A DNA stretch of 64,000 nucleotides from Candidatus Latescibacterota bacterium (GCA_965242865.1 CBDETK010000013.1:3552001-3616000), one strand, 5' to 3'. Positions 6,497-52,845 are shown, counted from the stretch's first letter. Notes: generated from the sequence alone by a model not told the origin. Numbers and translations: made by a program.

Positions 6497-6501
6497 GGCG
6501 T

Positions 6502-7050: not shown

Positions 7051-7063
7051 GTCTAAGGTCCGA

Positions 7064-35087: not shown

Positions 35088-35112
35088 TCCCTAAATGAAA
35101 GAGGAGAGTCCC

Positions 35113-36115: not shown

Positions 36116-37516
36116 CTATCCTCGATCTACGAACTGTTTACCGTCTATCTCGTATTGCTTGAGCTTCCGCTGTAGATTTCTGCGGGTCAATTGTATCGCC
36201 GTCGCGGTCTGGCTTACGTTGCCGTTGCCCCTTTCTAAGGCGCGGCGGATAAAGATCCGCTCAAACTGCTCGCGCGCCTCGTGGAAGTGCTGCTGCGGAA
36301 TATCGTAGTGCGAATCCTCGTCGCCATAGAGCTGTGCCGCGTCACCGGCCAAGGATGGGGGCAGATATTCGAGTTTGATCGCGTCGCCTTTGGCCACGGT
36401 CATCGCCCGCATGATCGCGTTTTCCAATTCGCGCACATTGCCGGGCCAGTTGTGTTCCTCCAAACGCTGCATGGCCTCGCTGGTAAACCCCTCAATGCGC
36501 TTGCCCAGCACTCCGTTGTAGCGGTTGACGAAGAAGGCGCACAAGAGCGGCAGGTCGCTCGTGCGATCCCGCAGCGGCGGGATTTCAATGGTCAGCGCGT
36601 TGATGCGGAAGTAGAGATCTTCGCGGAAAAGGCCCTCCGCAATGCGGGCTTCGAGGTTTTGGTGGGTGGCGGTGATCAGGCGCACATCCACTTGCCGGGT
36701 CTGTGTCGATCCCACCGGCTCAAACTCCCCTTCTTGGAGCACGCGCAAGAGCCGAATCTGCATATTGGTTTCGAGGTCGCCGATCTCGTCGAGGAGCAAG
36801 GTGCCGCCGTCGGCCTCGGCAAAACGACCGGCGCGGCCGCGGACCGCTCCGGTAAAGGCTCCCTTGACGTGGCCGAAAAGTTCGCTCTCCAGCACGCCCG
36901 GCGACAAGGCGGCGCAGTTGCAGCGCACAAAAGGCTTGTCCGCCCGGTCGCTGGTGCTGTGGATGGCGTTGGCAACCAGCTCCTTGCCGGTCCCGCTCTC
37001 GCCCCGGAGCAGGACAGTGACCGGCGTGGGTGCCACGTCCCGGATGAGCTGGTAGAGCTGTCTCATGCTCTCGCTCCGGCCCACTAAATTGCCGAACTCG
37101 CCCCGTTGCCCCTGCCGCAGGGCCTCGTTTTCGCGGCGCAGCACCTGCAACTCCAAGATGCGATCGAGATGCGCCAGCACTTCCCCGATGTCAAAGGGCT
37201 TGGACAGATAGCCGTAGGCCCCGAGCTTGACGGCTTTTACCGCGCTTTCCACGTCGGCATAGGCCGTCAAGATGACGACCTCTTCGCGGCGTTGCTGCTT
37301 TTTGAAGATCTCCAAGAAGCCGAGCCCATCCATGCCCGGCATCCTCAAATCGAGGAGGATGAGATCGAATTCCTCGTTGTTCAGTAGCGTTAGGGCCGCC
37401 TTTCCACTGACGCAGGTAGCAACCTCCAAGCCCTCGCGGCGCAACAGAATGGCCGATAAATCCAGCAAGTCCCGCTCGTCGTCTATCATGAGTATCCTGC
37501 CCTTGCGTTTGCCCAT
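36116..37516 (-). CDS. NtrC/AtoC-family sigma-54-dependent response regulator
   Basis: REC (DD, DLRMP, KP), GESGTGKE, ESELFGH, GAFTGA, WPGNVREL, Fis-type HTH. Confidence 0.95.
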   Translation of the reverse strand: MGKRKGRILMIDDERDLLDLSAILLRREGLEVATCVSGKAALTLLNNEEFDLILLDLRMPGMDGLGFLEIFKKQQRREEVVILTAYADVESAVKAVKLGAYGYLSKPFDIGEVLAHLDRILELQVLRRENEALRQGQRGEFGNLVGRSESMRQLYQLIRDVAPTPVTVLLRGESGTGKELVANAIHSTSDRADKPFVRCNCAALSPGVLESELFGHVKGAFTGAVRGRAGRFAEADGGTLLLDEIGDLETNMQIRLLRVLQEGEFEPVGSTQTRQVDVRLITATHQNLEARIAEGLFREDLYFRINALTIEIPPLRDRTSDLPLLCAFFVNRYNGVLGKRIEGFTSEAMQRLEEHNWPGNVRELENAIMRAMTVAKGDAIKLEYLPPSLAGDAAQLYGDEDSHYDIPQQHFHEAREQFERIFIRRALERGNGNVSQTATAIQLTRRNLQRKLKQYEIDGKQFVDRG

Positions 37517-37517
37517 G

Positions 37518-39662
37518 TCAATCGTTCCTCTCAGAGTTCGTGGTTAGTGGCCGCTGGCCGCTGCTTATTGTCGTAGGTAGATGGAGCGAAAAGTGCGTAC
37601 CTCGACCGGGGACGCTTTCGACCTCAATCCGACCGCCGATTTCCCGTATTTGCCGGTGGGCGATGGCCAACCCCAGTCCGGTGCCCTGCCCCGGCGGTTT
37701 GGTCGAGTAAAACGGCTCAAATATGTGCCGGATATGCGCTTGGGGAATGCCCGTACCGGTATCGTCGATCCCCACCACCACCCAATCATCCCGCTGCTCG
37801 GCCAAAATTAGCAGCTTGCCGCCCTCGGGCATGGCCGCAAAGGCATTGCTGATCAGGTTGAGAAACACATCCTTGAGCATGTCCCGATTCACCCACACTT
37901 GCGGCACCTCGTGCAGCCGGGCCTCAATGGCTATGCCGAGGTGATCGGCGTGTTTTTGTTCGAGGTCGATCAGTTGCCGTAGGATGCCCGCGGGGTCAAC
38001 CCACTCCTGCGTCTGCTGGGCGGGTCGGGCAAAGTCGAGCAGATTGACTACTCGTTCGTCGATCCGGCCGATAGCCGCGCCGAGGGGCCGGAGCGCTTGG
38101 TCCCGCCCCTCCACTTCCGCCGGGACAATCTGCGCCAACAACTCGTAGGCGTGCCGGATGATCGCCAGCGGGTTCTTGATCTCGTGCGCCACGCCCGCGG
38201 CCATCTCGCCGAGGGAGGCCAGCTTCTCGGACTGGACGTAGTGGAGCTCCAGCAGCTTGTGCTGGGTCTGGTCGTCGATCACCAGCAATAGATGCCCCGG
38301 CAAGGCCCCGGCCAAGTCCACGACCTTCAGGTTCCAAAACCGGGTGCCGCCTTGGGGGGACTTGATCTCCAAGTTGTCGATCGGCCGCGCCTTGGGGTTG
38401 CTTTTGATCCAGTCCCAAAGCTGCTGGCCCTCGGCCGTGTGTTCCCAAGAGCCAGCCTCGTCTTCGCCAAAGAGTTGGTGCCAAGCCTTGTTCACCCGCA
38501 CGGTTCGCCACGGCTGGGCCACCACCGCGAGGGCGAGGGGATTGTCCTCAATCAGCCGGTCGTTGAAGTTCAACTCGGCTTCCAGCGCGGCCTTGCGGGT
38601 TTCGAGGGCTTGGTTCATTTCGGTGAACGCCTGCCCCAGCTCCCACAGTTCGTCCTTTATGGCCGGCAGCTCCAGTGCAAACTCCTCGCCGGCCTGCGCG
38701 GCTCGCACCGCCTGCATCAGGCGATTGATGGGCCGAGTGATCGACCGCAGCAACAACAAGCCTAGCAAAATGGCCCCCGCGACCGAGGCGACCGTGATCC
38801 AGTTGGCACGGTGCTGCATCATCGCCACCAGCCCGAACGCCTCGCGTGCCTCCTGCTGTACCACCACGGTCCAGCCCCAGTCCGCAATGTACGCAAAGCC
38901 CGCTACCCACTCGCGTCCGTCTATGTCGCGCCATTGCCGGGTGCCATTGCCGCTTAGACGGGGCACGAATTGCGGATGGGTGGCGTCGAGATACACGTCT
39001 TGGCGCGCGGGAAAGGCGATATAGTGGCCCCGTGCGTCCAACAGCACCCCGCGGCCGGTATCGCCCAGCCGAATTTGGTCCACCTGCTGCCAGATTTCGT
39101 ACAGGGCAAACCGGGTGATCAAGGCACCGACCACTTGGTCGCCCTCTTTGACCGCCAAGCCAATAAACAGGCTCGGTTGCCCTTCGCGCTGGACCACTTC
39201 CGAAGCGTAGAATTTCTCTCGCTTCACCTGCGCCCACAGCACCCGGGCATGGGGCAGGTAATTGGGCGGCAGCCGATCGCCGCGCTGGAGTGGGGCTTGG
39301 ACATCGAGCACATTGGTGGCTTGGATTGTGCCGGCCGTATCCACGAAGCAGAGTTCGGCTACCGCGCCCAATTCCAACCCGACCTGACTCAACAGGCTCT
39401 GCCGACGCCAAGGGTCGCGGACCACATTCATGCTCTGGGCCAGCACCTTGAGGCTGGCGATGGGCTGGTCGAGAAAATGGTGGACCTCCTTGGCCGCCCG
39501 CTGGGCCACCTGCTGATGGGTGTTGAGCACGGCCTGCTCTAGCGCACTGCGCGCCGTGTACACGAGTACGCCGGCCACCAACAGCACGGGCACCAGCCCG
39601 ACGATCAGGTGATTGCCCAGCAGCCGCACCCACAGGCGATGTATGTTGGCGATGAATGTCAT
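37518..39662 (-). CDS. Sensor histidine kinase (Cache-HAMP-PAS-HisKA-HATPase)
   Basis: Two TMs around a periplasmic Cache-like domain; AHEIKNPL; NLISNA; DTGTGI; FEPFYSTK; GTGLGL. Confidence 0.93.
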   Translation of the reverse strand: MTFIANIHRLWVRLLGNHLIVGLVPVLLVAGVLVYTARSALEQAVLNTHQQVAQRAAKEVHHFLDQPIASLKVLAQSMNVVRDPWRRQSLLSQVGLELGAVAELCFVDTAGTIQATNVLDVQAPLQRGDRLPPNYLPHARVLWAQVKREKFYASEVVQREGQPSLFIGLAVKEGDQVVGALITRFALYEIWQQVDQIRLGDTGRGVLLDARGHYIAFPARQDVYLDATHPQFVPRLSGNGTRQWRDIDGREWVAGFAYIADWGWTVVVQQEAREAFGLVAMMQHRANWITVASVAGAILLGLLLLRSITRPINRLMQAVRAAQAGEEFALELPAIKDELWELGQAFTEMNQALETRKAALEAELNFNDRLIEDNPLALAVVAQPWRTVRVNKAWHQLFGEDEAGSWEHTAEGQQLWDWIKSNPKARPIDNLEIKSPQGGTRFWNLKVVDLAGALPGHLLLVIDDQTQHKLLELHYVQSEKLASLGEMAAGVAHEIKNPLAIIRHAYELLAQIVPAEVEGRDQALRPLGAAIGRIDERVVNLLDFARPAQQTQEWVDPAGILRQLIDLEQKHADHLGIAIEARLHEVPQVWVNRDMLKDVFLNLISNAFAAMPEGGKLLILAEQRDDWVVVGIDDTGTGIPQAHIRHIFEPFYSTKPPGQGTGLGLAIAHRQIREIGGRIEVESVPGRGTHFSLHLPTTISSGQRPLTTNSERND

Positions 39663-39670
39663 CCTTTTAT

Positions 39671-39729
39671 GATTTCAAAGGGCAACCACGTCATTGATTC
39701 CAAAGGGCAACCACGAGGGTTGCCCCTAC
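39671..39729 (-). repeat. REP-like element, family A (GTAGGGGCAACCCTCGTGGTTGCCC) with partial 25-bp duplication
   Basis: GTAG + GGGCAACC/GGTTGCCC hairpin overlapping the SBP stop codon; aaagggcaaccacg occurs twice. Confidence 0.7.
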
Positions 39730-41306
39730 GGTGCCCAGTACCATGCGGGCAAACTGCGGAAAATTCCCATTGGCACGACCGATTCCAGGCCCCGCAGCGG
39801 CTGCCGCACCGCGTACATGACCGGCTCTCGACAAATAAAAATGGTGGGATGATCCGTTAGCAGATGGCGATGGATACTCCGGTAGATCGCTATGGACGCG
39901 GCCTCGTCGTAGGCCACCCGACCGGCTTCGATCAGCCGATCCACTTCGGCATTGACATAACCCGACTCATTGCGGGCGTCCTGCGAATGCCATTCAGACG
40001 CGGCTACATCGGGATCGAGGACATTGTATCCTCTCTCCAATACCATGTCGAACCGCGACCTCACGGAAGAGAGCACCTGCAGCGGCGCGGTCTGCATGAG
40101 CAGGTGAATCCCTACTTCTTCCAAGTCTTTCCGCAACTGGGCCGCGATGTCGTGCCGATGCGGCATCTCCTTGGCCATGACCAAGGTCAATTCCAACGCA
40201 TCCCGCTCGCGCAACCCATCCCCGGCCCCATCCACCCAGCCGGCCGCTTGCAGGATGGCCCGGGCGCGCCGCTGGTCTTTGACCGGCGTGGGCACCTGCG
40301 GATCGCCATAGACCGAGCCGGGCGGAAAAGGCCCGGCCACAAAGACCGAGTCCGCCGTTGCTTCCCCGCCGAGTAGGTGCCATATCGCTCGGCGATCAAT
40401 CGCGTAATGGAGCACCGCTCGCACGCGCGGATCGCTCAACACCGATTCCGAGCGACAGTTTAATTTTAAGGCTGCATAGGCCGGACTCGCCCCTTTGAGC
40501 ACCTTGAAGGCCGAGTTGTCGGCGATGCTTTTCAGATCGTCGAGCGCGGCGGACGGGGCCACATCGCTTTCGCCGCGCATAAACGCGGCCCATGCGTAGC
40601 GCGTGTCTGGGTAATCGCCGCGCACCTCCACGGTGTCTAGGTACGGACGCCCCCCGTAATAGCCCTCAAAGGCTACCAACCGCACGTGATCCTCGCCGAC
40701 CCAATTGGCAAAGCGGAACGGCCCCGACCCGATGGGATGCCGATTGAAGGGCAACTCGTCTAGCCCATAGCCGGCCGCCAACTGCGGCTCGACGAGGTGC
40801 TTGGGCAGAATGTGCAACCGCAAGGGCACTAGTGCCGACCCTTGCGGTGGAGCGGCGTAGTGCAGCCGCACAATGTCGTGGCTGAGTGCCTCAATCCGAT
40901 CAAAGCGCAAATCCTCCCCGCGCCGCTGCTCCTTCATCAACTGGAGCGTAAAGACCACGTCCGCAGCCGTCACTGGCCGACCATCGTGGAACTGGGCATC
41001 AGATCGCAGCAAGATGTCCCAAAACTTTTTCCTAGGGCTGAATGGCCAAGCTACGGCCAGGGCCGGGGTAAGCTGACCGGTGGGCTCTTCCGTGAATAGG
41101 CGTTCAAAGAGCAGGTCCAATACCTCCGTGCTCACGGTGTGAGAGGCCGTGAGTGGATTGATCGGCTCCATGCCCCCGGTTGCCCCAATTCGCACCCGGC
41201 CCCCATAGAAAGGCCCATCGCGGTCAGGCGCGCTGCACCCGAGGACGAGCAAAAACGCCCATATCGCGGTTGTGCCTGTGCTTGGGGGCCGGGCTGGCCG
41301 GACCAT
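39726..41306 (-). CDS. Orphan family-5 (oligopeptide) ABC substrate-binding lipoprotein
   Basis: Lipobox VLGC; FHDGRPVTAADVVFT; PIGSGPF; no permease or ATPase genes adjacent. Confidence 0.9.
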   Translation of the reverse strand: MVRPARPPSTGTTAIWAFLLVLGCSAPDRDGPFYGGRVRIGATGGMEPINPLTASHTVSTEVLDLLFERLFTEEPTGQLTPALAVAWPFSPRKKFWDILLRSDAQFHDGRPVTAADVVFTLQLMKEQRRGEDLRFDRIEALSHDIVRLHYAAPPQGSALVPLRLHILPKHLVEPQLAAGYGLDELPFNRHPIGSGPFRFANWVGEDHVRLVAFEGYYGGRPYLDTVEVRGDYPDTRYAWAAFMRGESDVAPSAALDDLKSIADNSAFKVLKGASPAYAALKLNCRSESVLSDPRVRAVLHYAIDRRAIWHLLGGEATADSVFVAGPFPPGSVYGDPQVPTPVKDQRRARAILQAAGWVDGAGDGLRERDALELTLVMAKEMPHRHDIAAQLRKDLEEVGIHLLMQTAPLQVLSSVRSRFDMVLERGYNVLDPDVAASEWHSQDARNESGYVNAEVDRLIEAGRVAYDEAASIAIYRSIHRHLLTDHPTIFICREPVMYAVRQPLRGLESVVPMGIFRSLPAWYWAP

Positions 41307-41425
41307 TATGCCTCATTTCTGTGACGAGATATACTGAATACCGTCAGATAATAAGGCGCGTCGCTTTAGGACAAAAGCACCGTCTATAAGGCATGGCCCT
41401 TGCTACACGACACTACCCGGCCTTT

Positions 41426-43345
41426 TTAAGCATCTTCGGCCACCGGCCGGCTCTCCGCGGCAAAATGGTTGACAACGACATCAACCATTCGCTGCTGCCC
41501 CTCCACGGCAACAATCGCCACGGCCGGCAAGCCGAACGAAGCCTCCAAGCGCTCCAAGTGCGCCTTTATCTCATCCTCGCTCATTTGGCGAGAAGAAACC
41601 CAAGTTTTGCCATAGACCGAGCGAGCGTGTTTCTCCTTGTCGCTCATCGCCAGTAATATAACCGGGGCTTTGCCCAATATGCGGATGCCATCAAGGGTGT
41701 CTTGGATATACGCATCCGAATCCGTGCTGTTGACCACCAGAATGCAGGCGTCCGGTTTGGTCCCCAACAAGAAGTGGATCGACGGCTCGGTATGGGAGTT
41801 GTGGTTGGCGACATCGTAGGGTATGGTGCCCGACTGGCAGCCGACCATCATGATATCCGGTTTTTTCGCCGCGTTAATCTCGCGCATCTTGTGGTCTAGG
41901 TACGGGCCGTAGTATTGCAACGGCAGGTCTCTGGGCACGGCGTAGCCCATGGGAAAGGAAAAATCCATCCCGAACAGGGCCGAATGATGCTCCGTACCAA
42001 GCTGACCAACCTTGTATCCTTGCTCAATCAGCTTCTGCCGCAATGCGAGTTGCAAGGTGAACTTGCCCTGTTGAGAGCTCGTGCCAAACACCCCGACCAC
42101 CGGCACATCCACGGCGCGCTCGGAACCTTGGGCCGCAAGGCACCGTTGGACATCGGCAAAATCGAAATCCGGGAACTCCAAGTGCAACCCCTTGCTCCGC
42201 GCCAAGTCGTACAGGTCGGCGTAGGTCTCTAAATCAACCGCTAAGAAGCTGAACACGTTGAGCCCCCGTTCCAACGCCGTTTGTATCGCCTCGCGCAGCA
42301 AGTCCTTTTTGCCCAACCGGGATAGCTGATCTACGTACCCCAACACGAGGGTATCGGCCCCTTCGAGAGCGTCCCCGAGTTTGGGGACAATGCGCACACC
42401 TAACGGTTCGACGCCAATGGCCGCGCCAGCGTCCTTGCCCACCAAGCCTTTGCCGACCGGGTCGGCAATGCCAGCGATGGTGAAACGCAAATGCTTCGCG
42501 TGGCGCACCAGCGCATGCATTTCCTTGTTGTACGGATACAGGGCCGCCCGGCCAATCCACTCGTAGCTGGGAAAACCCGGCCGCTCGACCGTGACCGGCC
42601 CAGGATCCTCCGACTCTAAGGCGTTTGCCGCCAAAATCTCCCGCACTGGAGTCAGCCCTGCTTTGGGAAAGTGCTGGCGGATCAGGGCGACAATCGCCGA
42701 TACGTGGGGCGCGGCAAAACTGGTTCCGCCGGTGATCGTCTCCCCTCCGTTTAGCCAGCACAGACGCTGCGGATCGCCCCGGGCCACGCACTCAATGGCC
42801 TGCCCGGGTCGGTAGTAGTACCCGTAGCGGTCGTAGATTTTTCCCCAAGTGACGCCTATTACGTCGGCCAACTCGGCTGGGTAGCTCTCCAAGCCCTCGT
42901 TGTGCTGGGAACCGACCAAGATCAGATTGGCTGCAACGGCCTTGCGGCAGATCTCGGCCAAGGGCCTCTTAGACGCGGGGTCAATCGTCCCCAAGCTGAG
43001 ATTGACCACGTCCATGCCTTCTTCTATGGCCCAAGCGATGGCCGCGACCAGCGACTGTCCATCCGTAGTCAGCGACTCGTCGAAAATGCGGATCCCGTAG
43101 AGTTCGGCTTCCGGGGCTAGTTTGCGGATAATGCCGGCGCAGGCCGTACCGTGACCGGCCTGGTCGGAAAAGTCTCCCTCGCGTTGGATACCGCCGTCGG
43201 CAAGCGCACACAACCCAACTCCGCCGGCAATAGTGCCGATCTTGGGGTGATTGGGTTCAATACCGCTATCGACTACCGCGACCTTGACTCCGCGTCCGGT
43301 CAATCGGGTAAAGTCGAGCGTCTGCAACTGCTCATTGGTTCTCAT
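41426..43345 (-). CDS. S8 subtilase fused to DUF1611-like (Rossmann + P-loop) domain
   Basis: Catalytic triad motifs VVDSG, HGT, GTSFAAP; no signal peptide; C-terminal GVFGTSSQQGKFT. Confidence 0.85.
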   Translation of the reverse strand: MRTNEQLQTLDFTRLTGRGVKVAVVDSGIEPNHPKIGTIAGGVGLCALADGGIQREGDFSDQAGHGTACAGIIRKLAPEAELYGIRIFDESLTTDGQSLVAAIAWAIEEGMDVVNLSLGTIDPASKRPLAEICRKAVAANLILVGSQHNEGLESYPAELADVIGVTWGKIYDRYGYYYRPGQAIECVARGDPQRLCWLNGGETITGGTSFAAPHVSAIVALIRQHFPKAGLTPVREILAANALESEDPGPVTVERPGFPSYEWIGRAALYPYNKEMHALVRHAKHLRFTIAGIADPVGKGLVGKDAGAAIGVEPLGVRIVPKLGDALEGADTLVLGYVDQLSRLGKKDLLREAIQTALERGLNVFSFLAVDLETYADLYDLARSKGLHLEFPDFDFADVQRCLAAQGSERAVDVPVVGVFGTSSQQGKFTLQLALRQKLIEQGYKVGQLGTEHHSALFGMDFSFPMGYAVPRDLPLQYYGPYLDHKMREINAAKKPDIMMVGCQSGTIPYDVANHNSHTEPSIHFLLGTKPDACILVVNSTDSDAYIQDTLDGIRILGKAPVILLAMSDKEKHARSVYGKTWVSSRQMSEDEIKAHLERLEASFGLPAVAIVAVEGQQRMVDVVVNHFAAESRPVAEDA

Positions 43346-43360
43346 CTGGGTCGTCCTTTT

Positions 43361-45091: not shown

Positions 45092-45118
45092 TTTGCCCTC
45101 CCTTGCGCTAGGGGCCGA

Positions 45119-45463
45119 TCAGTAGAGTAGGTGCTTGACCGAACTCAAATCGGCCTTGTTGGTGATGACATCGTAGTACTTCACGCCTTTGAAGTTGAAA
45201 GCGAGCGGCTCGACCAAGTCGAACCAAGGCTTCAACTCGTTGTAGAAGATGACCGAAAGATGCGGCTTCTCCTGCACGGGAATATGGACGTTGACGACCG
45301 TGTTGTTCTCATCAATTACAAACACGGCTGGGGTCGGTTCGCCAAAGGGCGTCTCGTTGAAGTATCCGGTCGTGTCCGACGCCACCGGAAACGCAATCTG
45401 AAAAGTCCGCACATAGTCCGAGAACTTCCGCTTGCTCATCCTCGCGATGCAGTAGATGGGCAT
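45119..45463 (-). CDS. C-terminal half of an AhpC/TSA thioredoxin-like fold (possibly truncated)
   Basis: FPVASD...TPAVFVIDEN; no CxxC; no clear RBS. Confidence 0.5.
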   Translation of the reverse strand: MPIYCIARMSKRKFSDYVRTFQIAFPVASDTTGYFNETPFGEPTPAVFVIDENNTVVNVHIPVQEKPHLSVIFYNELKPWFDLVEPLAFNFKGVKYYDVITNKADLSSVKHLLY

Positions 45464-45568
45464 CGGCTGATGACGGCAACCTGCGCGACGCGTACGATGC
45501 TGTGGGGTGCTGTCGATGGGAACGGTGGACGATGCGGGAAACTAATCTGCGAGTTGCGGAACCGCCGT

Positions 45569-46216
45569 TTACGAAGTGAAGTACCGATCCAGCCAGTCTC
45601 GGATACCCTGCTCCGTCGCCTCTTCGTCGTCTTGGTCGCTATAGTGCCAGTTGAGCACCTCAAAGGCGTCATCTACTACAAACCAGACCGGCACGGACGA
45701 CCGGGCGTCCGACTGGAACAGCAGGGCTTCGAGTTGCTGCTCGGCCACGAAGGTGAAGGCGAAGGGCACGATACCCACCTTGTTCTTGATGGCGATCTGC
45801 TGCTTGATGTGTTCGTTGGCGTCGCCTACGACCAACAGCAATTTGCCGTGAGAGACGCCCTGCTGCGCCATGGCCTGCTTCCACTGGTCGAGTTGGGCAA
45901 ACAGGCAGGCTCCACAGGTCCGGCTCGTCGATACAACTACGACAAAAGGCTGGCCGTCCTCGGCGGCCGACTCGTCGAACTGGGCGAAGCGGCCCAAGTC
46001 CACCGATTCGAGCAGCTTGCGGTGTAGTTTGTTCTTGAGGGCGGCGTTGACCTCGTAGTTCCACTGGACGGTTTCCAAGTGTTTTAGCCGCTCGTTGAGG
46101 GTCTCCAACTCGTCGAGTCTGTCGGTATTGTCTCGGTGCAGGGCCAAGGCGACTGAGCCGAGGCCGAGAGACAACAGTAGCAGGGCTTTGGTTAGCTGAG
46201 TGGCATTCATGGTCAT
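45569..46216 (-). CDS. Membrane-anchored thioredoxin-like (CxxC) protein
   Basis: N-terminal hydrophobic anchor, TCGAC, VPVWFVVD; AAGGAG RBS. Confidence 0.7.
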   Translation of the reverse strand: MTMNATQLTKALLLLSLGLGSVALALHRDNTDRLDELETLNERLKHLETVQWNYEVNAALKNKLHRKLLESVDLGRFAQFDESAAEDGQPFVVVVSTSRTCGACLFAQLDQWKQAMAQQGVSHGKLLLVVGDANEHIKQQIAIKNKVGIVPFAFTFVAEQQLEALLFQSDARSSVPVWFVVDDAFEVLNWHYSDQDDEEATEQGIRDWLDRYFTS

Positions 46217-46228
46217 GGTCTCCTTATT

Positions 46229-47404
46229 CTACTGGCCGCCCCGCGAGCGGCTGAACGCACTCTTGCCAGCTCCCGTGCGATCGTTGATTCGATAGATGGC
46301 TACGTATGGATCGCTCGTCTCGCCGGTCGCTTCGTCGAGGGCATCCTCAACCACAAAATACAGTTCCATACCGTCAACCGTCAGCAGTCTATGGCTGGCG
46401 GGTAATCTGATGCCGTCGGCAACCGAATGGCCGTCCTTGTAAAAGAGATTTAGATAGTATTCCGGCTTACCGTTAACCACACGCCGGTATTGTGTAAGCA
46501 CCAGCAGGTCGGGACCGAATTCATAGAGTCGGGAACGGACAATGTGCTCGGCAAACCATTCGTTGTGCCGAGCGGTCCAATTGACCGGATCCAAGTCGGC
46601 GGGAAAAGGCTTGATCCGGTCCCGGTGCTTAGACTGGTACTCGCTAAACCAAGTCCGTTCCAACTGGCCCTGCTCGCTGTATTGGTGGATCTCGTAGGTC
46701 GTCGGGTAGATGAAGTAGAAGCCGCCTCCCCGCTTGGGAGTGAGCACGGTGTTATGATAGCGATTCAACGCCCGTCCGGTTCGTTTGTCTTCGACCGGAT
46801 ACAGGCCGGCAACTTTATTGAGGTTGTCGTCGAAGCGGAACAGCGCGTATTGGCCTTCCGCTCGCACCCCGGCCGAGCCGGCGTCAATGACGTCCACTTG
46901 TGCGCCATAAATATGGCCACCCGTGGTGAGCACAATATGGTCAATGAACTCAGGGTTGGGATCTGGCACCTGCCGCTTGAATTTATATGAATCGCCAGAG
47001 AAGAAGAGATATTTCCTACTTTCTCCCAAGCTGTAGAAATAGAAGTCTCCGTTAGGGGCCAACCGTGGTCTTAATGGATTGAAGTATTCGTCCTCGGCTC
47101 CTCCACGCACTCCAATTTGCCGCAGGTAATGGCCCTCGGCATCGGTCTGAAAAATCATATTCTGGATACCATCTAAAACAATGAGGTTGCCCTTAGCATC
47201 AACGAAGACGTAGCTAATCTGGCCCACAATGACATGCTCAGGCATTTGCAAATGGATGTCCCGATCCTTGACGAATGCCTCGTCAAACGTAAGGTCGGCT
47301 GCCGGTGGGGTGATTTCTATCCGGCCAGCAGGCTGGTCATCACCGCATCCGACCAGAGGCACCATAGTACCGACGATTGCGATGAACTGTATCCGATTTT
47401 TCAT
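46229..47404 (-). CDS. 6-bladed beta-propeller lipoprotein
   Basis: Lipobox LVGC; IGVRGGAEDEYFNP NHL-like blade; YEIHQYS. Confidence 0.75.
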   Translation of the reverse strand: MKNRIQFIAIVGTMVPLVGCGDDQPAGRIEITPPAADLTFDEAFVKDRDIHLQMPEHVIVGQISYVFVDAKGNLIVLDGIQNMIFQTDAEGHYLRQIGVRGGAEDEYFNPLRPRLAPNGDFYFYSLGESRKYLFFSGDSYKFKRQVPDPNPEFIDHIVLTTGGHIYGAQVDVIDAGSAGVRAEGQYALFRFDDNLNKVAGLYPVEDKRTGRALNRYHNTVLTPKRGGGFYFIYPTTYEIHQYSEQGQLERTWFSEYQSKHRDRIKPFPADLDPVNWTARHNEWFAEHIVRSRLYEFGPDLLVLTQYRRVVNGKPEYYLNLFYKDGHSVADGIRLPASHRLLTVDGMELYFVVEDALDEATGETSDPYVAIYRINDRTGAGKSAFSRSRGGQ

Positions 47405-47476
47405 AACATTTTCCTTGTGGATGGTTGGTGTTGAGCCACTATGTATTCATAAGGCTCAGTACCCGAAGATTCAGAG

Positions 47477-47512
47477 GAGTGGACCGGGGATCACTTTGAC
47501 CCCGGTCCACTC
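47477..47512 (-). other. Strong stem-loop downstream of peptide ORFs, module 1 (no U-tract)
   Basis: gagtggaccgggg-atcactttga-ccccggtccactc; near-identical copy at 52215-52250. Confidence 0.75.
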
Positions 47513-47598
47513 GCTCGTCAACGGCTCGGTGGTTGTTTAGCTACCCCTCCAGTGGCGATTCTATCGAATCAAGCAGGGCGGAAGGGCCTGCTGACTGA

Positions 47599-47742
47599 CT
47601 AGCCGCAGCAGCAGCAGAGGCGGCCCTCTCCAGAGCAATCAGCTTTCGGAGGACTGCTTTCGCAGATGGAGAGGGCGAATTCCAGCTGCGCCTCGACGGC
47701 CTGGCCGTAGGTGGCGCGTTGGGGTTTGTGCAGAGCGATCAT
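47599..47742 (-). CDS. Putative RiPP precursor, 47 aa: MIALHKPQRATYGQAVEAQLEFALSICESSPPKADCSGEGRLCCCCG
   Basis: AAGGAG RBS before ATG 47742; leader-like N-terminus shared with paralogues; six Cys in the C-terminal part. Confidence 0.8.
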   Translation of the reverse strand: MIALHKPQRATYGQAVEAQLEFALSICESSPPKADCSGEGRLCCCCG

Positions 47743-47938
47743 GATTATGCTCCTTGAGTAAGTGAATGGTTCTATTGAACCAAAGGGGGACGCCAAGGGC
47801 GTCGCGAAAGGGCCTCCTTATGAGAACCCTTGATAGGGCTGATACAGGCAGCGTCATGTTACGAGAAGGAACGGCAGATGCCTGCGTGGCTTCAATGGCC
47901 GAGCCGTAGCTTGTATTTACGGATGGATGCAGGGACAT
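47639..47938 (-). CDS. Precursor paralogue MSLHPSVNTSYGSAIEATQ... (long tail probably read-through/degenerate)
   Basis: GAGGAGG RBS; LH-x6-YGxA[IV]EA motif shared with 47599-47742; 3' part overlaps that ORF out of frame. Confidence 0.5.
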   Translation of the reverse strand: MSLHPSVNTSYGSAIEATQASAVPSRNMTLPVSALSRVLIRRPFRDALGVPLWFNRTIHLLKEHNHDRSAQTPTRHLRPGRRGAAGIRPLHLRKQSSES

Positions 47939-47971
47939 GGCTTCAGACCTCCTCGACTGTGAACGCTAGCT

Positions 47972-48052
47972 TTACCAGCGCGCCCCGAAAAAGGGCCACT
48001 GCACAGACCGCCGAAAGCGGCGGCGGTAACGGCGGTTGATAACGCGGTTCAT
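47972..48052 (-). CDS. Arg/aromatic-rich 26-aa peptide MNRVINRRYRRRFRRSVQWPFFGARW
   Basis: AAGAGGAGG RBS; first ORF after the sigma-54 promoter; translated by hand. Confidence 0.6.
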   Translation of the reverse strand: MNRVINRRYRRRFRRSVQWPFFGARW

Positions 48053-48149
48053 TGTTCCCTCCTCTTATGGGGTGGATGGAAAGCCTGCCCGTCGGCCCCT
48101 ATTCCTTAGTGGCCAACAACAGCTTGCTTTCGTGTTCACTTACTATATA

Positions 48150-48166
48150 AGCATATTCCGTGCCAA
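48150..48166 (-). promoter_or_regulatory. Sigma-54 -24/-12 promoter (module 1)
   Basis: TTGGCACGGAATATGCT, GG-N10-GC. Confidence 0.85.
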
Positions 48167-48256
48167 ACTGATTCTTGATAAAAGATAAACTACTAATAAA
48201 CATATACTTATAAAAAATTAAGGCACTTCATGCCAAACGCTGAATCGCGCTTCAAT

Positions 48257-48355
48257 TGCACCCTTTCGACGCACCTAACCCCCCATTTGCTCTCTATTTC
48301 TATTTTTTACAACAGTTTAGAGCAAGTGCGTTAAAAAGGACGCAGTGCGTCAAGG
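48257..48355. promoter_or_regulatory. Candidate bEBP enhancer sites (module 1)
   Basis: tgcaccctttcgacgca (48257) and tgcgttaaaaaggacgca (48327), 70 bp apart; conserved in module 2. Confidence 0.7.
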
Positions 48356-48603
48356 TCGACTTGGTCCACGACGAGTAGCGGAGTTAGAAACCAATCCTTT
48401 TTTAATGCGCTAACACCCATTCTCGCCTACTGCGTTCTGGCCGAGGCGTCCCCCTTAGTGTGCGTCTAAGACGGGAGGAGAATGGGGAGTGGAGGAATTG
48501 AAATTGAAACCGGACAACTTTACAGGTGAATGGACCGGACTGCGGATCTGGGCCTTAGAGCCTCTTTTCGTCCTCGCAATTTACGAGGTGGAGTAGCACC
48601 CTT

Positions 48604-49644
48604 TTATCTTAGAGATGAGAGATGCGAAAGCACCTCACCCAAGAGCGCGAACTCATCCTTTCTCAGGCGGCATAGTTCATCTTGGGCAAACGTTCGACCT
48701 TCCTTGGCCTTTTTGCCTCTCATCTGGTTTCTCAACACAACCATGCGGATCTGATTTGCGCGGCTGGCGATATCCGAGTATCTCCGGGCAAAACCGACCT
48801 CTTCGGGCAGGATCCCTTGGCCCTCCATGTACTCCAGCCGAGCGACCATGCACTTTTTGTGCTCCCAGAAAATACGCAAGGAGATAAGCAGCTCGTCCTC
48901 GGTCGCCTCCGGCTCATCAAGCAGCCCTGCGAGGAACTGGTAAGTATCCATCCCCCACAGGTCGCCGCGGTTTCTCGGTTCGGCGAGTATCCGCAACCGC
49001 GTTGAGGTGTTGCGAGACAGGTAGAGGTCGGTCAATTCCTCCCGGGCCTGCACTAAGTCAAAAGCACACTCAGCAGACGACCGGTAGTAGTAGAGCACAA
49101 CTTGAGGATTCTCAACCTTGTCCTGTAGCCAATCAGGGCCACCCTCCGGCCTAAACGCCGTGGATAACGCCCGCTCAAACTCGGCGAACCCCACGGCGAA
49201 ACGGCCGTAGCTCCCATCGCGGCCGTAGCCCGACGCAGTAAAAGTGCCTTGTCGCCAGTCAAAGCCGCTCAAAAGCAGTTCGTGAAGAAAATGAACCCGT
49301 TGGTAATACACGCCCTGTGGAATGTAAAAGTAGTCCACATCCAACTGCACGTAGTAATCCCTTTCGAGGCACTCCAAGACGAATTTTGTGACTTCATCCG
49401 GCTTGTCCCCGGCCAGTCGCCGGTCAACCCTATTGGATTCGAGCAAAGGGCAGGTGGAGAACTCTCGATAAAACGGATGGAGGTAGAAATTCAGCCCCCG
49501 TCCCTCAAACTGTCGCAACTGGATATAGTGACAATAGAACCACGGCCGGTACGCTGTGTCGCGGGCGAGGATCGAAAGCGGGTATAGATGGTGCATATAC
49601 CCGGTGATGGGCGGTTTGCCGATGGGCAAACACTTTTTCGTCAC
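48604..49644 (-). CDS. BtrH-like (papain-fold) putative acyltransferase/peptide-modifying protein
   Basis: YYVQLDVDYFYIP...HFLHELLLSGFD pattern typical of BtrH_N/C39-like folds; GTGA overlap with the GT4 gene. Confidence 0.55.
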   Translation of the reverse strand: MTKKCLPIGKPPITGYMHHLYPLSILARDTAYRPWFYCHYIQLRQFEGRGLNFYLHPFYREFSTCPLLESNRVDRRLAGDKPDEVTKFVLECLERDYYVQLDVDYFYIPQGVYYQRVHFLHELLLSGFDWRQGTFTASGYGRDGSYGRFAVGFAEFERALSTAFRPEGGPDWLQDKVENPQVVLYYYRSSAECAFDLVQAREELTDLYLSRNTSTRLRILAEPRNRGDLWGMDTYQFLAGLLDEPEATEDELLISLRIFWEHKKCMVARLEYMEGQGILPEEVGFARRYSDIASRANQIRMVVLRNQMRGKKAKEGRTFAQDELCRLRKDEFALLGEVLSHLSSLR

Positions 49645-50900
49645 GACGCGATCCTCGCTTTCGCGTCCGTGGTTCCTTGGAGGAGACGCATTAGCCGCCG
49701 TGCGGAAGCAGACCAGCTAAATCGAGGTCGATCCGGGGGGATTTGGGGCGGAAAACCAACCGTATAGGCTTGAGCCAATAGCCTCACCAGCGAATCAGCA
49801 TCGTCGAGTCCGTAATACCGCCCCTGCTTGCCTACCACCTCGTTCATTATCGGAATGTCGGGAACAATGACTTCCGTCCCGCAGGCCAACGCCTCCACCG
49901 CTGGCAGGCAAAAGCCCTCATCTACCGACGAGATCACCAGTGCTGCGGCACTGTGGTATAGAGCAGCCAGTTCGTCGTCGTCAACCCGACCGAGGAACCG
50001 GACTTGCTCCCCCAAGGCATTGGCTGCGACGGACCGTTCCAATTCGCTTTGGTACGCCCCGTAATCCCCCACCATCACCAACGGAGGACACAGCCCCCGC
50101 TCGGCCTTGAGCTCGGCCAACACCGAAAAGAGCCAGTCCAACCTTTTGCGCTTGTGTGCTAGCCCTACAAAGAGGAAGAACGGGGATTTTAGGCCGTGCT
50201 GGACCAGTACTCGGGCGATGGTTTCGCCATCCCGCTGGCCGCTGAAAATGCGCTCGTCAGCCGCCCCCGACACCACATCAATCTTCTCGTTGGAGATGCC
50301 GAGTATCTGTACAATGTCTTGCTTGACCGTATTGGAAACAGTGATCACCCCTTCGCATTGGGTCGCTAAACGTCTGTTCATAGCCCAGAAATAGTGGTGG
50401 AACACTTCTTTGCCTTCGGGCACATCCCCAAATCCAACTGTGTTGTGTCCAAGACGCTCACACGCCATCCTCATTTGCTCAAACTCCGACCGGCCGAATT
50501 TGGCTTGGAACGCCGCATCCGTATAGGTCGATAGATCGGGGTGCTTGAGCCGGATTAGGTCGTGGATAGTGAATATGTAGGGAACGGGCAGCAACGGATC
50601 AACGATATAATGGATTGAGTAGTACAAATTGACCCCTTCCCGGATAAGCCAATTCCGCAACCACGACGAATCGCGCACAAATCCACCGTCGTCCGGCACT
50701 TCCACGAAGCGGAGCCGACGAGTCAAACGCGGATTTTTCAGATCGGCTGCGATTTCACCACTGCGTCCCGGCCAAGCGATCACGGTCAGGCGGTAATCTC
50801 CATCGATTTCGTCGGCATCCAGCGCGTGCAACAGGGAAGTGCCATAGCGATAGATGCCGCTATAGTGGGTCGTGCGTAGGTCAAAGGCTAAATGGGTCAT
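49641..50900 (-). CDS. GT4 (GT-B) glycosyltransferase
   Basis: TIHDLI, ITVS, FVG, EGFCLPAVEALACG. Confidence 0.92.
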   Translation of the reverse strand: MTHLAFDLRTTHYSGIYRYGTSLLHALDADEIDGDYRLTVIAWPGRSGEIAADLKNPRLTRRLRFVEVPDDGGFVRDSSWLRNWLIREGVNLYYSIHYIVDPLLPVPYIFTIHDLIRLKHPDLSTYTDAAFQAKFGRSEFEQMRMACERLGHNTVGFGDVPEGKEVFHHYFWAMNRRLATQCEGVITVSNTVKQDIVQILGISNEKIDVVSGAADERIFSGQRDGETIARVLVQHGLKSPFFLFVGLAHKRKRLDWLFSVLAELKAERGLCPPLVMVGDYGAYQSELERSVAANALGEQVRFLGRVDDDELAALYHSAAALVISSVDEGFCLPAVEALACGTEVIVPDIPIMNEVVGKQGRYYGLDDADSLVRLLAQAYTVGFPPQIPPDRPRFSWSASARRLMRLLQGTTDAKARIAS

Positions 50901-50954
50901 GGTATCTCACTCCTTAGCAACGGGAATAGGGAAGCCTAGCAAGTTCTCATGTTG

Positions 50955-51392
50955 TTAGCGGTCGGCTGGAATTTCCCGCTCCTTCTGCACCAACAGCGTT
51001 GCAGCACCCCCAGCCAACAACAAACCGCGCAACAGTGCCCAACCCAGCGAAGCACCCTCGTCGCCACCAAAACAACCGCACGTCACCTCGTTGCCGCGGT
51101 ACATATTGATGCCGAGCGCCGCACTAAAAACCACCAGTAGCCCCAAGATGACCAAGGCGTTACTGCGCGACCAGATGCCCAAGAGCAGAAGGCCGCCGGC
51201 AATCAGTTCAACCCAGACGACCGACAGCGCAAACGGCGCAGCCCAATCCACCGGGAGCATATCAAAGGCCGCGACCGTCTCGACGAAAGACGGTATTTGC
51301 ACGAGCTTTGCACTCCCCGCCCAAACAAAGACACCGCCCAACACCAGCCGGACCGTCAGAGCCAGATAGGGCCTGAGTGCAAGTCTGTCCAT
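50955..51392 (-). CDS. MauE/DoxX-family membrane protein
   Basis: RLVLGGVFVWAGSAK, VELIAG, CGCFG; TAATG coupling to the rhodanese gene. Confidence 0.88.
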   Translation of the reverse strand: MDRLALRPYLALTVRLVLGGVFVWAGSAKLVQIPSFVETVAAFDMLPVDWAAPFALSVVWVELIAGGLLLLGIWSRSNALVILGLLVVFSAALGINMYRGNEVTCGCFGGDEGASLGWALLRGLLLAGGAATLLVQKEREIPADR

Positions 51393-51868
51393 TAGAAAGG
51401 ACCCTCCGATTCCACGGGATAACCCGCTTCTTCCCATTGGGGAAATCCGCCCGCGAAGACGTAGATCTGCGTAAAATCCATCTCCGTTGCGAGCTTTTGC
51501 GCCAGTTTGGAGCCCAAGTTACACGTCGTCCCTGAACAGTAAACGACCAGCGCGGTATCCTTGGACAAGTCGGCCAATTCCGCGCCAAAAGCGGCGAGAA
51601 TCTCCGACGGTGGGACATTAAGAGCCCCGGGCACATGCCCCAACTGGTAGGGCCAAGAAGACCGAGCGTCCACGAACACAGCCGCCCTTTGGTCCAAGAG
51701 CCGTTTGGCCGTTGCTAAATCAATCAGATGCACACCATTTTCGGGCCGCTGGACCTCTTCTATTGCCAAGCTATGCAGTCCGCCGCTGGAGACGCCGATC
51801 GCCACTACCAGCAATGCCTTTCCAACAATTCGCTTCATCACAGCGAATCCCCTTTCTCCGGTAGTCAA
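51392..51868 (-). CDS. Exported rhodanese-like domain protein
   Basis: VDARS, GHVPGALNVP, VYCSGTTC, GGFPQW. Confidence 0.88.
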   Translation of the reverse strand: MTTGERGFAVMKRIVGKALLVVAIGVSSGGLHSLAIEEVQRPENGVHLIDLATAKRLLDQRAAVFVDARSSWPYQLGHVPGALNVPPSEILAAFGAELADLSKDTALVVYCSGTTCNLGSKLAQKLATEMDFTQIYVFAGGFPQWEEAGYPVESEGPF

Positions 51869-52137
51869 ACCCCTATTGGCGGTACTTTGCCGCGCACGAA
51901 TTCGGCGATGGAACGCACCGACACAAACCGTTCCGCCCGCAGTTCCTCGTCTTCCACATCAATGGCAAAGTGCGTTTCCAAGGCCATGACGAGCTGTAGC
52001 ATGACTATTGAATCAGCCCCCAGACCATCACCCAACAGCAACTCGTCGTCCGCGATAGCCTCCGGTTCGATCTCCAGTTCAAGAGCTTGGACGATAACCT
52101 GTTTGATCTGTGCTTCGAGTTTCATCTCGATGTCCAT
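51865..52137 (-). CDS. Stand-alone acyl carrier protein
   Basis: GLGADSIVML phosphopantetheine Ser motif; acidic, 90 aa. Confidence 0.9.
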   Translation of the reverse strand: MDIEMKLEAQIKQVIVQALELEIEPEAIADDELLLGDGLGADSIVMLQLVMALETHFAIDVEDEELRAERFVSVRSIAEFVRGKVPPIGV

Positions 52138-52214
52138 GATCGCCTATTCTTCCGTTTGCGGCGCACGAAACATGCTTCGTGAGGGCATGCTTTAGAAATA
52201 CCCGAAGATCAGCG

Positions 52215-52250
52215 GAGTGGACCGGGGATCACTTTGACCCCGGTCCACGC
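52215..52250 (-). other. Stem-loop downstream of peptide ORFs, module 2
   Basis: gagtggaccggggatcactttgaccccggtccacgc. Confidence 0.75.
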
Positions 52251-52269
52251 GCTCATCAACGGCTCCGTT

Positions 52270-52375
52270 CTACCGAACTAAGTCGTGCCAGCAAGACCGA
52301 CAAGGAACGATGGCGCCCTACGTGTCAACACAGGCCGGACCGTAGCTTGTATTTACGGATTGGATGCAGAATCAT
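52270..52375 (-). pseudogene. Degenerate precursor paralogue (as written: 16 aa MILHPIRKYKLRSGLC, 52325-52375)
   Basis: One extra base relative to the 47938 copy; corrected frame reads MILHPSVNTSYGPACVDT*GAIVPCRSCWHDLVR*; GAGGAGG RBS. Confidence 0.55.
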
Positions 52376-52409
52376 GGCTTCAGACCTCCTCTACCTTGGC
52401 TACCCAGGG

Positions 52410-52475
52410 CTAGGCCAGCGGGGACTGTTCGTCGAGCCGACGATACCTGATTTCGGCTAAGGGGTGCAGAGTCAT
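52410..52475 (-). CDS. 21-aa peptide MTLHPLAEIRYRRLDEQSPLA
   Basis: AAGAGGAGG RBS; LH-x6-Y motif; first ORF after the module-2 sigma-54 promoter. Confidence 0.6.
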   Translation of the reverse strand: MTLHPLAEIRYRRLDEQSPLA

Positions 52476-52565
52476 GGCGGACCTCCTCTTTATAGGGTGG
52501 ATGGAAAGCCGGCCCTTCAGCAGGTGCGGCCAAACGGCTTGCTTTCGCGCTCACCTATACACCAT

Positions 52566-52582
52566 AGCACATTCCGTGCCAA
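52566..52582 (-). promoter_or_regulatory. Sigma-54 -24/-12 promoter (module 2)
   Basis: TTGGCACGGAATGTGCT, GG-N10-GC. Confidence 0.85.
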
Positions 52583-52670
52583 ACGGAGCCGCAAAGCCGT
52601 AATTGATTGTTATACAAAGGGTTATAGAAAATGGGGGCCTTTCGTCCAAGTCGCCGAGTCGCGCTTCCAT

Positions 52671-52766
52671 TGCACCCTTTTGACGCACCTAACGACCTGT
52701 TTTATTTGTATCTCACGTCTTTACAATGGCTTAGAGCAAGTGCGTCAAAAGAGCCGCAGTGCGCTA
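52671..52766. promoter_or_regulatory. Candidate bEBP enhancer sites (module 2)
   Basis: tgcaccctttTgacgca (52671) and tgcgtcaaaagagccgca (52741), 70 bp apart. Confidence 0.7.
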
Positions 52767-52845
52767 AAAGTGACCGCGGGGGCCGTTGCGTGAGTTGCTC
52801 TCAATCGTTACGCTCAGGTTTATCCTTCGTTTGAGGAGTCGCGCC

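Follow-up and report, generated by a model that had tools for sequence, protein, structure and literature searches.

Related Systems

The CLI_3235-type systems, which comprise a TIGR04065 precursor, TIGR04066, a TIGR04068 radical S-adenosylmethionine (SAM) protein and TIGR04069 (e.g., SacP23 of Paenibacillus polymyxa), are the nearest described counterparts of a gene block that we analyzed in a Latescibacterota bacterium. The block occupies positions 36116-52780 of a 64,000-nucleotide stretch of Candidatus Latescibacterota DNA (hereafter the window), with every gene on the minus strand, and includes a gene in which an S8 protease is fused to DUF1611, together with genes for an acyl/peptidyl carrier protein (ACP), a BtrH/CtaG-fold protein, an ABC exporter, and a short precursor peptide. 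In the Paenibacillus CLI_3235 cluster, S8, TIGR04066, TIGR04069, and the radical SAM protein are encoded by separate genes, and the role of TIGR04066 was guessed (PMC10731318). The available part of that article contains no test of the roles of TIGR04066 and TIGR04069, and the available parts of the literature searched hold no characterization of the DUF1611 or ACP-like proteins of CLI_3235-type systems.

A Cys-rich precursor, a DUF1611-type protein, a small carrier-like protein, an S8 protease, and an ABC exporter are common to CLI_3235-type systems and the window. Unlike them, the window carries S8 and DUF1611 in one protein, has a BtrH/CtaG-fold protein in the place of the radical SAM protein, and scores below the cut-off or not at all with all four TIGRFAM models. 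The resemblance had been proposed in a first-pass annotation of this DNA and is real: the C-terminal half of the fusion protein (residues 266-629) matches TIGR04066 with an E-value of 1.6e-35, though below the cut-off (122.8 vs. 200 bits), and the Paenibacillus cluster likewise contains S8, TIGR04066, and TIGR04069. TIGR04069 scored 19.2 bits with the window ACP (cut-off 70), below general ACP models, AsbD being among the NCBIfam matches of this protein, and none of nine precursors scanned had an NCBIfam match at E <= 1, TIGR04065 included. Bacteroidota and Firmicutes relatives of the fusion (L050, L057, and L059) adjoin a radical SAM gene.

CtaG, BtrH, and AsbE are papain-like amide ligases that use acyl groups supplied by carrier proteins and have a Cys-His-Asp triad, while AziU2/U3 has the same fold and a different reaction (PMC12865890). 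As far as the available part of that article goes, known members of the BtrH/AsbE/CtaG/CcbD family use small molecules or intermediates bound to carriers as acylation substrates, and ribosomal peptides are not among these. The window shares with this family the two-domain fold over the full length of the protein and a stand-alone carrier protein encoded beside it, but its subtype has no conserved catalytic Cys and stays below the BtrH_N cut-off.

Acylation is known among peptides that are ribosomally synthesized and modified after translation (RiPPs): selidamides, lipolanthines, goadvionins, and lipoavitides are all made via GNAT acyltransferases, and several N-acylated RiPPs are acylated at the N-terminus after leader removal, according to the available part of the source (PMC13647313), in which papain-like or BtrH enzymes are not mentioned. 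These lipopeptides and the window have a ribosomal peptide and acyl-transfer genes in common, but the window locus has no GNAT.

QhpE and QhpF, like MauE and MauD, have roles in maturing small Cys-rich dehydrogenase subunits. Like the QhpE/QhpF pair, the window has an ABC exporter and a cytoplasmic S8 leader peptidase without a prodomain; like the MauE/MauD pair, it has MauE with thioredoxin-like partners for a Cys-rich small polypeptide. Unlike Qhp loci, it has no QhpC, QhpD (radical SAM), or QhpG neighbors and no dehydrogenase subunits, and its QhpE score is below the cut-off. A limited literature search yielded no publication tying DUF1611 or BtrH-type enzymes to ribosomal peptides, and titles and abstract openings of the papers listed on RiPPs and biosynthetic gene clusters in Latescibacterota contained nothing on an S8-DUF1611 system.

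A Conserved S8-DUF1611 Cluster

The cluster is a genuine, conserved, and largely unannotated peptide-maturation system, related to the uncharacterized CLI_3235/TIGR04066 systems; its gene content, conserved synteny, precursor family, and promoter conservation are all observed. We consider it probable that this is a RiPP-type peptide biosynthesis and export cluster belonging to a family that is widespread and multi-copy in Latescibacterota. More tentatively, it may represent the first RiPP family whose ribosomal peptide receives a carrier-borne unit through a stand-alone carrier protein and a papain-like BtrH/CtaG-type enzyme, a step that would be tied to the removal of the leader by S8-DUF1611; the system would serve as a multi-copy hypervariable arsenal in Latescibacterota and neighboring, partly sponge-associated phyla; it would then also provide the first role of DUF1611/TIGR04066 in peptide maturation.

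Our comparison drew on 64 sources (61 fetched loci, the window, and two other loci of its own genome), and the counts given here are restricted to the 45 in which the fusion gene is flanked by at least 5 kb on either side, which excludes 19. ACP, BtrH-like, ABC exporter, MauE, and rhodanese genes were counted by family hidden Markov models (HMMs) over all open reading frames (ORFs), and other families by greedy-ORF clusters, which give lower bounds. ACP was found in 43 of the 45 loci (the two without it are the window orthologs L001 and L003, where it lies beyond the fetched range), the ABC exporter in 41, and a BtrH-like gene in 36, of the window's type in 24 and of a second type in 12. ACP and BtrH-like genes occur together in 34 loci, and in 36 the ACP gene starts between -37 and +250 bp relative to the S8-DUF1611 stop. 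With its core gene order found again in dozens of loci, the arrangement is not due to chance. The S8-DUF1611 fusion, ACP, BtrH-like protein, exporter, and precursor are the class-defining set.

The GT4, MauE, rhodanese, thioredoxin-like, and propeller genes are accessories of the window's subtype: GT4 was found in at least 3 of the 45 loci, MauE in 10, rhodanese in 14, thioredoxin-like types 1 and 2 in at least 11 and 6, respectively, and the propeller in at least 19. Elsewhere GT28 (at least 7), GNAT (at least 9), and an AraC-type regulator (at least 15) occur. The "acylated, glycosylated and disulfide-bonded" class of the first-pass annotation had been read from gene names and is not supported as it stands: glycosyltransferases (GT28 and GT4 together) were counted in just 10 loci, and MauE and rhodanese do not define the class.

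In a protein collection, 603 relatives of the fusion protein were found at E <= 0.001 among 8000 candidates scored, and both S8 and DUF1611 were present in all 120 relatives listed. A census of the phylum at E <= 1e-80 placed the fusion in 82 of 168 Latescibacterota species genomes, 25 of them among the 52 of high quality, and in 22 of 49 genera; single genomes have as many as 7 matches, and the window's own genome has three copies. The nearest loci are 90% identical, and orthologs of the window locus are 79-92% identical at the protein level. An in-frame TGA in some matches to paralogs was considered as selenocysteine and rejected; these are the genes' own stops, read through by the alignment. 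In another locus (L014, 12074-15750), ACP, MauE, GT4, and BtrH-like genes lie directly 3' of its own S8-DUF1611 gene; its GT4 and BtrH-like proteins are 83-85% identical to those of the window but its fusion protein only 57%, which points to modular shuffling between paralogous loci.

The Fusion Protein and the Carrier Protein

When the window protein and 40 of the 120 relatives listed were aligned (41 sequences), no variation was seen in the S8 triad D26/H65/S209, the oxyanion Asn115, or the DUF1611 Walker A motif. The S8 domain begins at residue 17 (Pfam), too near the N-terminus to accommodate a signal peptide or prodomain. The leader peptidase QhpE is the nearest named S8 protein in NCBIfam (E 1.3e-40; 139.1 bits vs. 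cut-off 165). The C-terminal half also shows a weak NCBIfam match to the N-acetyltransferase DgcN (PMC12363236, available in part), and the nearest solved structure to the DUF1611 half is the uncharacterized 2G0T (E 1.2e-7). A structure prediction of S8-DUF1611 in complex with the precursor scored 0.58, against 0.00 for the best control, with contact agreement between runs of at least 66% and a partner predicted local distance difference test (pLDDT) value of at least 45. Among 157 solved complexes, 116 reached the mark used for such predictions, as did 2 of 215 mismatched pairs, and scores of 0.60 or less were seen for just 18 of those 157, plus both mismatches that passed, so that the prediction lends weak support to an association of the two.

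In the ACP, Ser43, the phosphopantetheine Ser, is invariant in 48 of 48 homologs, and the window's own genome contains one gene for a phosphopantetheinyl transferase of the ACPS family.

The Precursor Peptide Family

The 1.2-kb gap between the lipoprotein gene and the gene for the 346-aa BtrH-like protein contains a 47-codon ORF (47599-47742) with a good ribosome-binding site (RBS). Its product has six Cys in a core of ~23 residues and ends in four consecutive Cys followed by Gly. An initial motif search over all fetched loci gave 23 matches, 12 of which are small peptides with a common N-terminus, and an iterated leader HMM detected, at E < 0.01, 32 ORFs in 25 loci and the window; six further ORFs below the threshold, one of them in the second locus of the window's own genome, have the same leader/core pattern. 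When the window peptide was aligned with 29 of the 31 other ORFs (one duplicate and one ORF without a Met start were excluded), a leader of ~25 residues proved to be conserved, with its Met, a basic Lys-Pro-x-Arg-type stretch, a Val-x-Ala-Tyr motif (with Gln in place of Tyr in the window group), and acidic residues. The cores are hypervariable and mutually unrelated, and include short ones with four to six Cys, 50-residue Cys/aromatic ones, ~110-residue ones, and Gly/Ala-rich ones. In the four orthologous copies (the window, L001 twice, and L003), the RBS and the leader codons are kept, the latter with synonymous changes, and the cores diverge with four Cys retained.

A precursor with a conserved leader and a variable core beside candidate tailoring genes, the hallmark of RiPP-type loci, is thus found here. 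Short ORFs sharing this leader also accompany S8-DUF1611, ACP, and BtrH-like genes elsewhere, a co-occurrence on which the first-pass annotation had staked its proposal. Of the several short peptide ORFs it named, the one at 47599-47742 is the sole supported peptide gene; those at 52372-52688 overlap a promoter cassette and were rejected. Two precursors scanned against Pfam gave chance-level matches alone. A profile of the precursors matched 68 proteins at E <= 1e-3 among 3984 candidates of a large protein collection; none of the 68 has a Pfam domain, and the two that are named, from Poribacteria and Gemmatimonadetes, are called "hypothetical protein." In the Bacteroidota metagenome-assembled genome of L050, a 137-aa Cys-rich ORF (6417-6830) lies between HlyD and the radical SAM gene, upstream of S8-DUF1611 and ACP, and its N-terminal leader is similar by eye. 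The leader type may be common to the radical SAM and BtrH-like versions.

The extreme diversity of the cores, some of which are long or are Gly/Ala-rich and hydrophobic like those of class II bacteriocins, would also suit essentially unmodified, or only disulfide-bonded, bacteriocin-like or signaling peptides that are merely processed and exported. Their leader would mark them for cleavage by the S8 domain and for secretion by the ABC pump, and the ACP, BtrH-like, and DUF1611 proteins would serve another product, e.g., a small amide or an envelope lipid. CPBP-type proteases (at least 12 of the 45 loci), HlyD (at least 26), and RND proteins (at least 11) are consistent with such peptides, as is the window-type BtrH-like protein without a Cys nucleophile. 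However, the close spacing of ACP and S8-DUF1611 in most loci and the joint presence of ACP and BtrH-like genes, a tight coupling to a leader peptidase, are hard to square with an unrelated substrate, and the S8-DUF1611 fusion is itself conserved. We consider unmodified peptides unlikely.

The BtrH/CtaG/CcbD-Fold Protein

The label "BtrH-like" had been given to the 346-aa protein in the first-pass annotation, and it is apt for the fold, as judged from an AlphaFold model built with the window protein and 22 of 23 homologs (one, with an apparently over-extended ORF start, was dropped). The top Foldseek matches of the model are AziU2/U3 (E 4.9e-7), CtaG, and CcbD. With VIA-align, the match extends over the full length for CcbD (Z 15.4; root-mean-square deviation 3.7 A; 292 residues aligned), AziU2/U3 (Z 15.1), and CtaG (Z 13.7), whereas helical-bundle matches cover the C-terminal domain only (Z <= 11.7). 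The protein is accordingly predicted to have the bipartite fold of a papain-like N-domain and a helical C-domain. At the level of sequence families the label did not stand, with a Pfam BtrH_N score of 13.7 bits (cut-off 29.7; E 0.075), DUF4872 not being matched either. Its protein-atlas feature scores are 0.98 to clusters in which a minority of members (17-33%) has BtrH_N. In the 12 sister loci of the second type, the gene after ACP encodes a true BtrH_N + DUF4872 protein; the one scanned scored 44.4 and 34.9 bits.

In the window-type proteins, the first helix begins with a Ser/Thr, and of two further residues Asp128 is invariant and His120 almost so, the equivalence of these residues being uncertain in view of the low-confidence N-terminus of the model.

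Sigma-54 Promoter Cassettes and Regulation

Sigma-54 promoters have the consensus -24 GG/-12 GC. Two intergenic regions of the block share a cassette of ~550 bp, which within the window's own genome occurs at these two sites only and was seen in no other type of locus. In an alignment of 10 copies, from the window, L001 (three), L002, L003 (two), L004, and L006, the -24 element and the -12 GC are invariant in 10 of 10 copies with sigma-54 spacing, and the canonical -12 tetranucleotide is present in 8. Invariant blocks that include an inverted repeat lie ~100-190 bp upstream of the promoter, with an A/T-rich stretch between. The genome encodes RpoN (201 bits), and the regulator of the block matches PF00158 with 232 bits. 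The sigma-54 circuit of its own that had been claimed for this block is well supported, its promoters being predicted from conservation. The solute-binding protein (SBP)-kinase-activator module is confined to the orthologous group L001-L005. A scan for sigma-70 promoters gave 4 promoter-like sites in place of 7.2 expected, and one for terminators 23 terminator-like sites in place of 17.2, with nothing outstanding in either. Rfam gave no match at E <= 1 in window positions 47300-52900, and no RNA run holding the locus was listed among 12 runs.

The leader that follows promoter B (leader B) is conserved at the DNA level and is probably non-coding, because its indels are not multiples of three. 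After the precursor gene comes a hairpin (47479-47512) whose two arms change together in the L003 copy, as would fit a device by which the amounts of precursor and enzyme transcripts are set relative to each other. In cassette A, the promoter and the hairpin recur, the leader is shortened, and there is no precursor.

Some small ORFs were seen in these leaders. In leader B (47860-47940, minus strand) and in L001 (2190-2260), an ATG behind a strong RBS opens 17 codons that resemble the precursor leader, with 41% identity and a pairwise E of 0.002 (0.02 in L001), as if the leader-coding sequence had been copied upstream and had then degenerated; promoter cassettes may have spread as promoter-precursor units. 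Both 5' leaders also contain a small upstream ORF behind a conserved strong RBS on the minus strand (47972-48052, 26 codons; 52410-52475, 21 codons). Its start is kept in four of five copies and its peptide sequence is not; the one at 47972-48052 is very Arg-rich in the window and L003.

Accessory and Redox Genes

The best NCBIfam matches of the rhodanese protein are TsoB-like and rhodanese-related (seleno)protein, both below the cut-off, and the propeller lipoprotein scores 22.4 bits with DUF5128 (cut-off 22.9), its relatives in other loci reaching 60.9 bits. The 215-aa thioredoxin-like protein has no family match; it is a CxxC paralog of a 238-aa Redoxin-type protein (E 6e-7, CxxC motifs aligned). 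It was also considered as a relative of the AhpC-type 183-aa protein of L007, to which it shows no significant similarity.

Another conceivable function for the peptide would be that of a metal-binding or redox peptide that is matured outside the cytoplasm, with functional Cys and no antibiotic activity, comparable to the small subunits of methylamine and quinohemoprotein amine dehydrogenases or to Cu-binding RiPPs. Six Cys within ~23 core residues, the MauE protein (101.8 bits) with its weak match, below the cut-off, to the HvfX family of Cu-binding RiPP maturation (E 6.7e-5), the proximity of the S8 domain to QhpE, and a metal ABC-3 transporter/repressor fusion nearby (54951-56228) would fit such a peptide. 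However, orthologous precursors retain only four Cys and otherwise vary, MauE and rhodanese are accessory, neither dehydrogenase subunits nor MNIO nor radical SAM enzymes were found in the block with Pfam and NCBIfam, and ACP and the BtrH-like protein would be left unexplained. A metal or redox peptide is therefore rather improbable in our judgment.

Layout and Integrity of the Locus

The block is one co-oriented set of genes, as first annotated, and the gene list given there holds, most of the families in it being identified when its 13 large ORFs were scanned against Pfam and NCBIfam (Table 1). The absence of radical SAM, YcaO, and lanthipeptide (Lan) enzymes among these ORFs was equally confirmed. 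The thioredoxin-fold proteins fared differently: the 215-aa CxxC gene stands, but the 114-aa gene is the 3' half of a 238-aa gene.

Table 1. Features of the block and its flanks in the window.
Feature	Position	Strand	Basis or remark
NHL-repeat/6-bladed propeller gene, just outside the block	35095-35973	+	
NtrC-type sigma-54 enhancer-binding response regulator	36116-37516	-	receiver + Sigma54_activat + HTH_8 (Pfam, NCBIfam)
dCache-HAMP-PAS histidine kinase	37518-39662	-	dCache-HAMP-HisKA-HATPase (Pfam, NCBIfam)
SBP_bac_5 lipoprotein, family-5 solute-binding, peptide/nickel type	39726-41306	-	Pfam, NCBIfam
S8 + DUF1611_N + DUF1611_C fusion	41426-43345	-	Pfam, NCBIfam
ABC exporter, permease and ATPase fused, no C39 peptidase domain	43361-45091	-	Pfam, NCBIfam
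5'-truncated Redoxin/ResA-like remnant, 114 aa	45119-45463	-	intact 238-aa gene in orthologous loci
Membrane-anchored thioredoxin-like protein, CxxC, 215 aa	45569-46216	-	similarity to 238-aa Redoxin-type protein
Lipoprotein, probably 6-bladed beta-propeller, 391 aa	46229-47404	-	DUF5128 below cut-off; lipobox visible
Hairpin just 3' of precursor gene, no T-run	47479-47512	-	both arms co-change in L003
Precursor peptide gene, 47 aa	47599-47742	-	leader conservation, RBS
Conserved 5' leader B, ~390 nt, with apparent degenerate leader-like ORF (start 47938) and small hairpins	47743-48129	-	
Promoter cassette B (upstream blocks + sigma-54-type promoter), 5' of precursor	48130-48360	-	
BtrH/CtaG/CcbD-fold protein, 346 aa, divergent subtype	48604-49644	-	fold comparison
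GT4 glycosyltransferase	49641-50900	-	PF00534, PF13692, PF13439
MauE/DoxX membrane protein	50955-51437	-	PF07291, 101.8 bits
Rhodanese-domain protein, N-terminal hydrophobic segment	51392-51868	-	PF00581, 61.7 bits
ACP, 90 aa	51865-52137	-	PF00550 (PP-binding), 34.9 bits
5' leader A: shortened leader B copy without precursor gene, ending in conserved hairpin (52215-52248)	52139-52544	-	
Promoter cassette A: upstream blocks (inverted repeat) + -24/-12 sigma-54-type promoter, 5' of ACP operon	52545-52780	-	
AAA-ATPase_like + PDDEXK_9 gene, flank	52786-54582	+	
Metal ABC-3 transporter fused to repressor domain, nearby	54951-56228		

Homology to L001 and L003 begins exactly at 45463, inside their 238-aa Redoxin-type gene. 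The window therefore lacks the 5' half of that gene, CxxC included, and the third promoter cassette that precedes it in L001 and L003, the junction lying at 45463-45569. Contigs from two runs of one study, which may stem from the sample of origin, bridge this junction with zero differences; in a sponge-metagenome run of another study, the contigs of a related strain diverge exactly at the junction and have a piece of the cassette beside the 215-aa gene, so that this strain retains the arrangement without the deletion. With the third cassette lost, the ABC-fusion-sensor genes must be read from promoter B in the window strain. It might be asked whether the locus is a decaying copy whose product is no longer made, given the truncated gene, the lost cassette, a cassette A that resembles a promoter-precursor unit minus its precursor, and a G+C content of 0.54-0.57 across 44-54 kb (0.63-0.65 in the surroundings), suggestive of a mosaic or acquired origin. 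We think this highly improbable, because the remaining 13 genes are full-length open frames with catalytic residues intact, and their orthologs are well conserved.

The flanking genes, which include an aldo-keto reductase, are unrelated or on the opposite strand. The NHL-repeat gene is convergent to the regulator gene and is kept beside the orthologous loci L001 and L002. A copy of the AAA-ATPase_like/PDDEXK_9 gene, ~81% identical in DNA, is found inside the L003 cluster (5255-7096, minus strand) beside a promoter cassette, and the copies may mark rearrangement points.

Proposed Pathway

From these data we infer chemical steps and a sensed signal as follows. The cluster's own NtrC-type regulator would activate the two sigma-54 promoters, and the dCache kinase and the solute-binding lipoprotein would do the sensing. 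Promoter A would read ACP-rhodanese-MauE-GT4-BtrH-like, and promoter B the precursor, the hairpin, and then propeller-Trx-ABC-S8/DUF1611-SBP-kinase-regulator. Guided by its conserved leader, the peptide would reach the S8-DUF1611 protein in the cytoplasm, and the S8 domain of that protein would cut the leader off in the manner of QhpE. A unit borne by holo-ACP would be attached to one of the peptide's amines, in the simplest case its new N-terminus, by the BtrH/CtaG-fold protein or the DUF1611 domain (or both), and the other would load ACP. The ABC pump would export the product; in this subtype, MauE, the CxxC thioredoxin-like protein, and rhodanese would treat the core cysteines outside the cytoplasm, and GT4 might attach an optional sugar. 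Expression is possibly autoinduced via SBP, kinase, and activator.

Several observations weigh against a pathway in which a carrier-borne unit is transferred to the peptide. The window-type BtrH-like proteins have no conserved N-terminal Cys in 23 sequences, and with just His and Asp conserved the protein may not be a transacylase; AziU2/U3, which is aziridine-forming, is an equally good structural match. The model has a mean pLDDT of 69 and a predicted template modeling score (pTM) of 0.67, with residues 1-27 below pLDDT 50, and a profile-profile comparison with 12 of 13 members aligned links the window type only weakly to the true BtrH_N paralogs (probability 40%, E 3e-4). Among the genes of the block there is no known type of ACP-loading enzyme, be it an adenylating enzyme, an ATP-grasp protein, or a ketosynthase. 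Leader-bearing ORFs were detected at E < 0.01 in just 21 of the 45 loci, which is a lower bound, and some cores are 110-140 aa long or Gly/Ala-rich, resembling unmodified bacteriocins. In the window itself, the loss of part of the Redoxin-type gene and of the third cassette belongs on the same side.

Significance

If the proposed transfer is true, the cluster would join ribosomal precursor peptides with carrier-protein (thiotemplate) transfer by protease-like ligases, which are usually separate, and it would give a role to the DUF1611/TIGR04066-TIGR04069 pair, annotated merely as "peptide maturation system." The self-contained sigma-54 cassette, with its kinase and binding protein, is a defined regulatory switch for heterologous work, and the conserved leader is a handle for mining a large, unannotated, and hypervariable set of peptides in an uncultured phylum.

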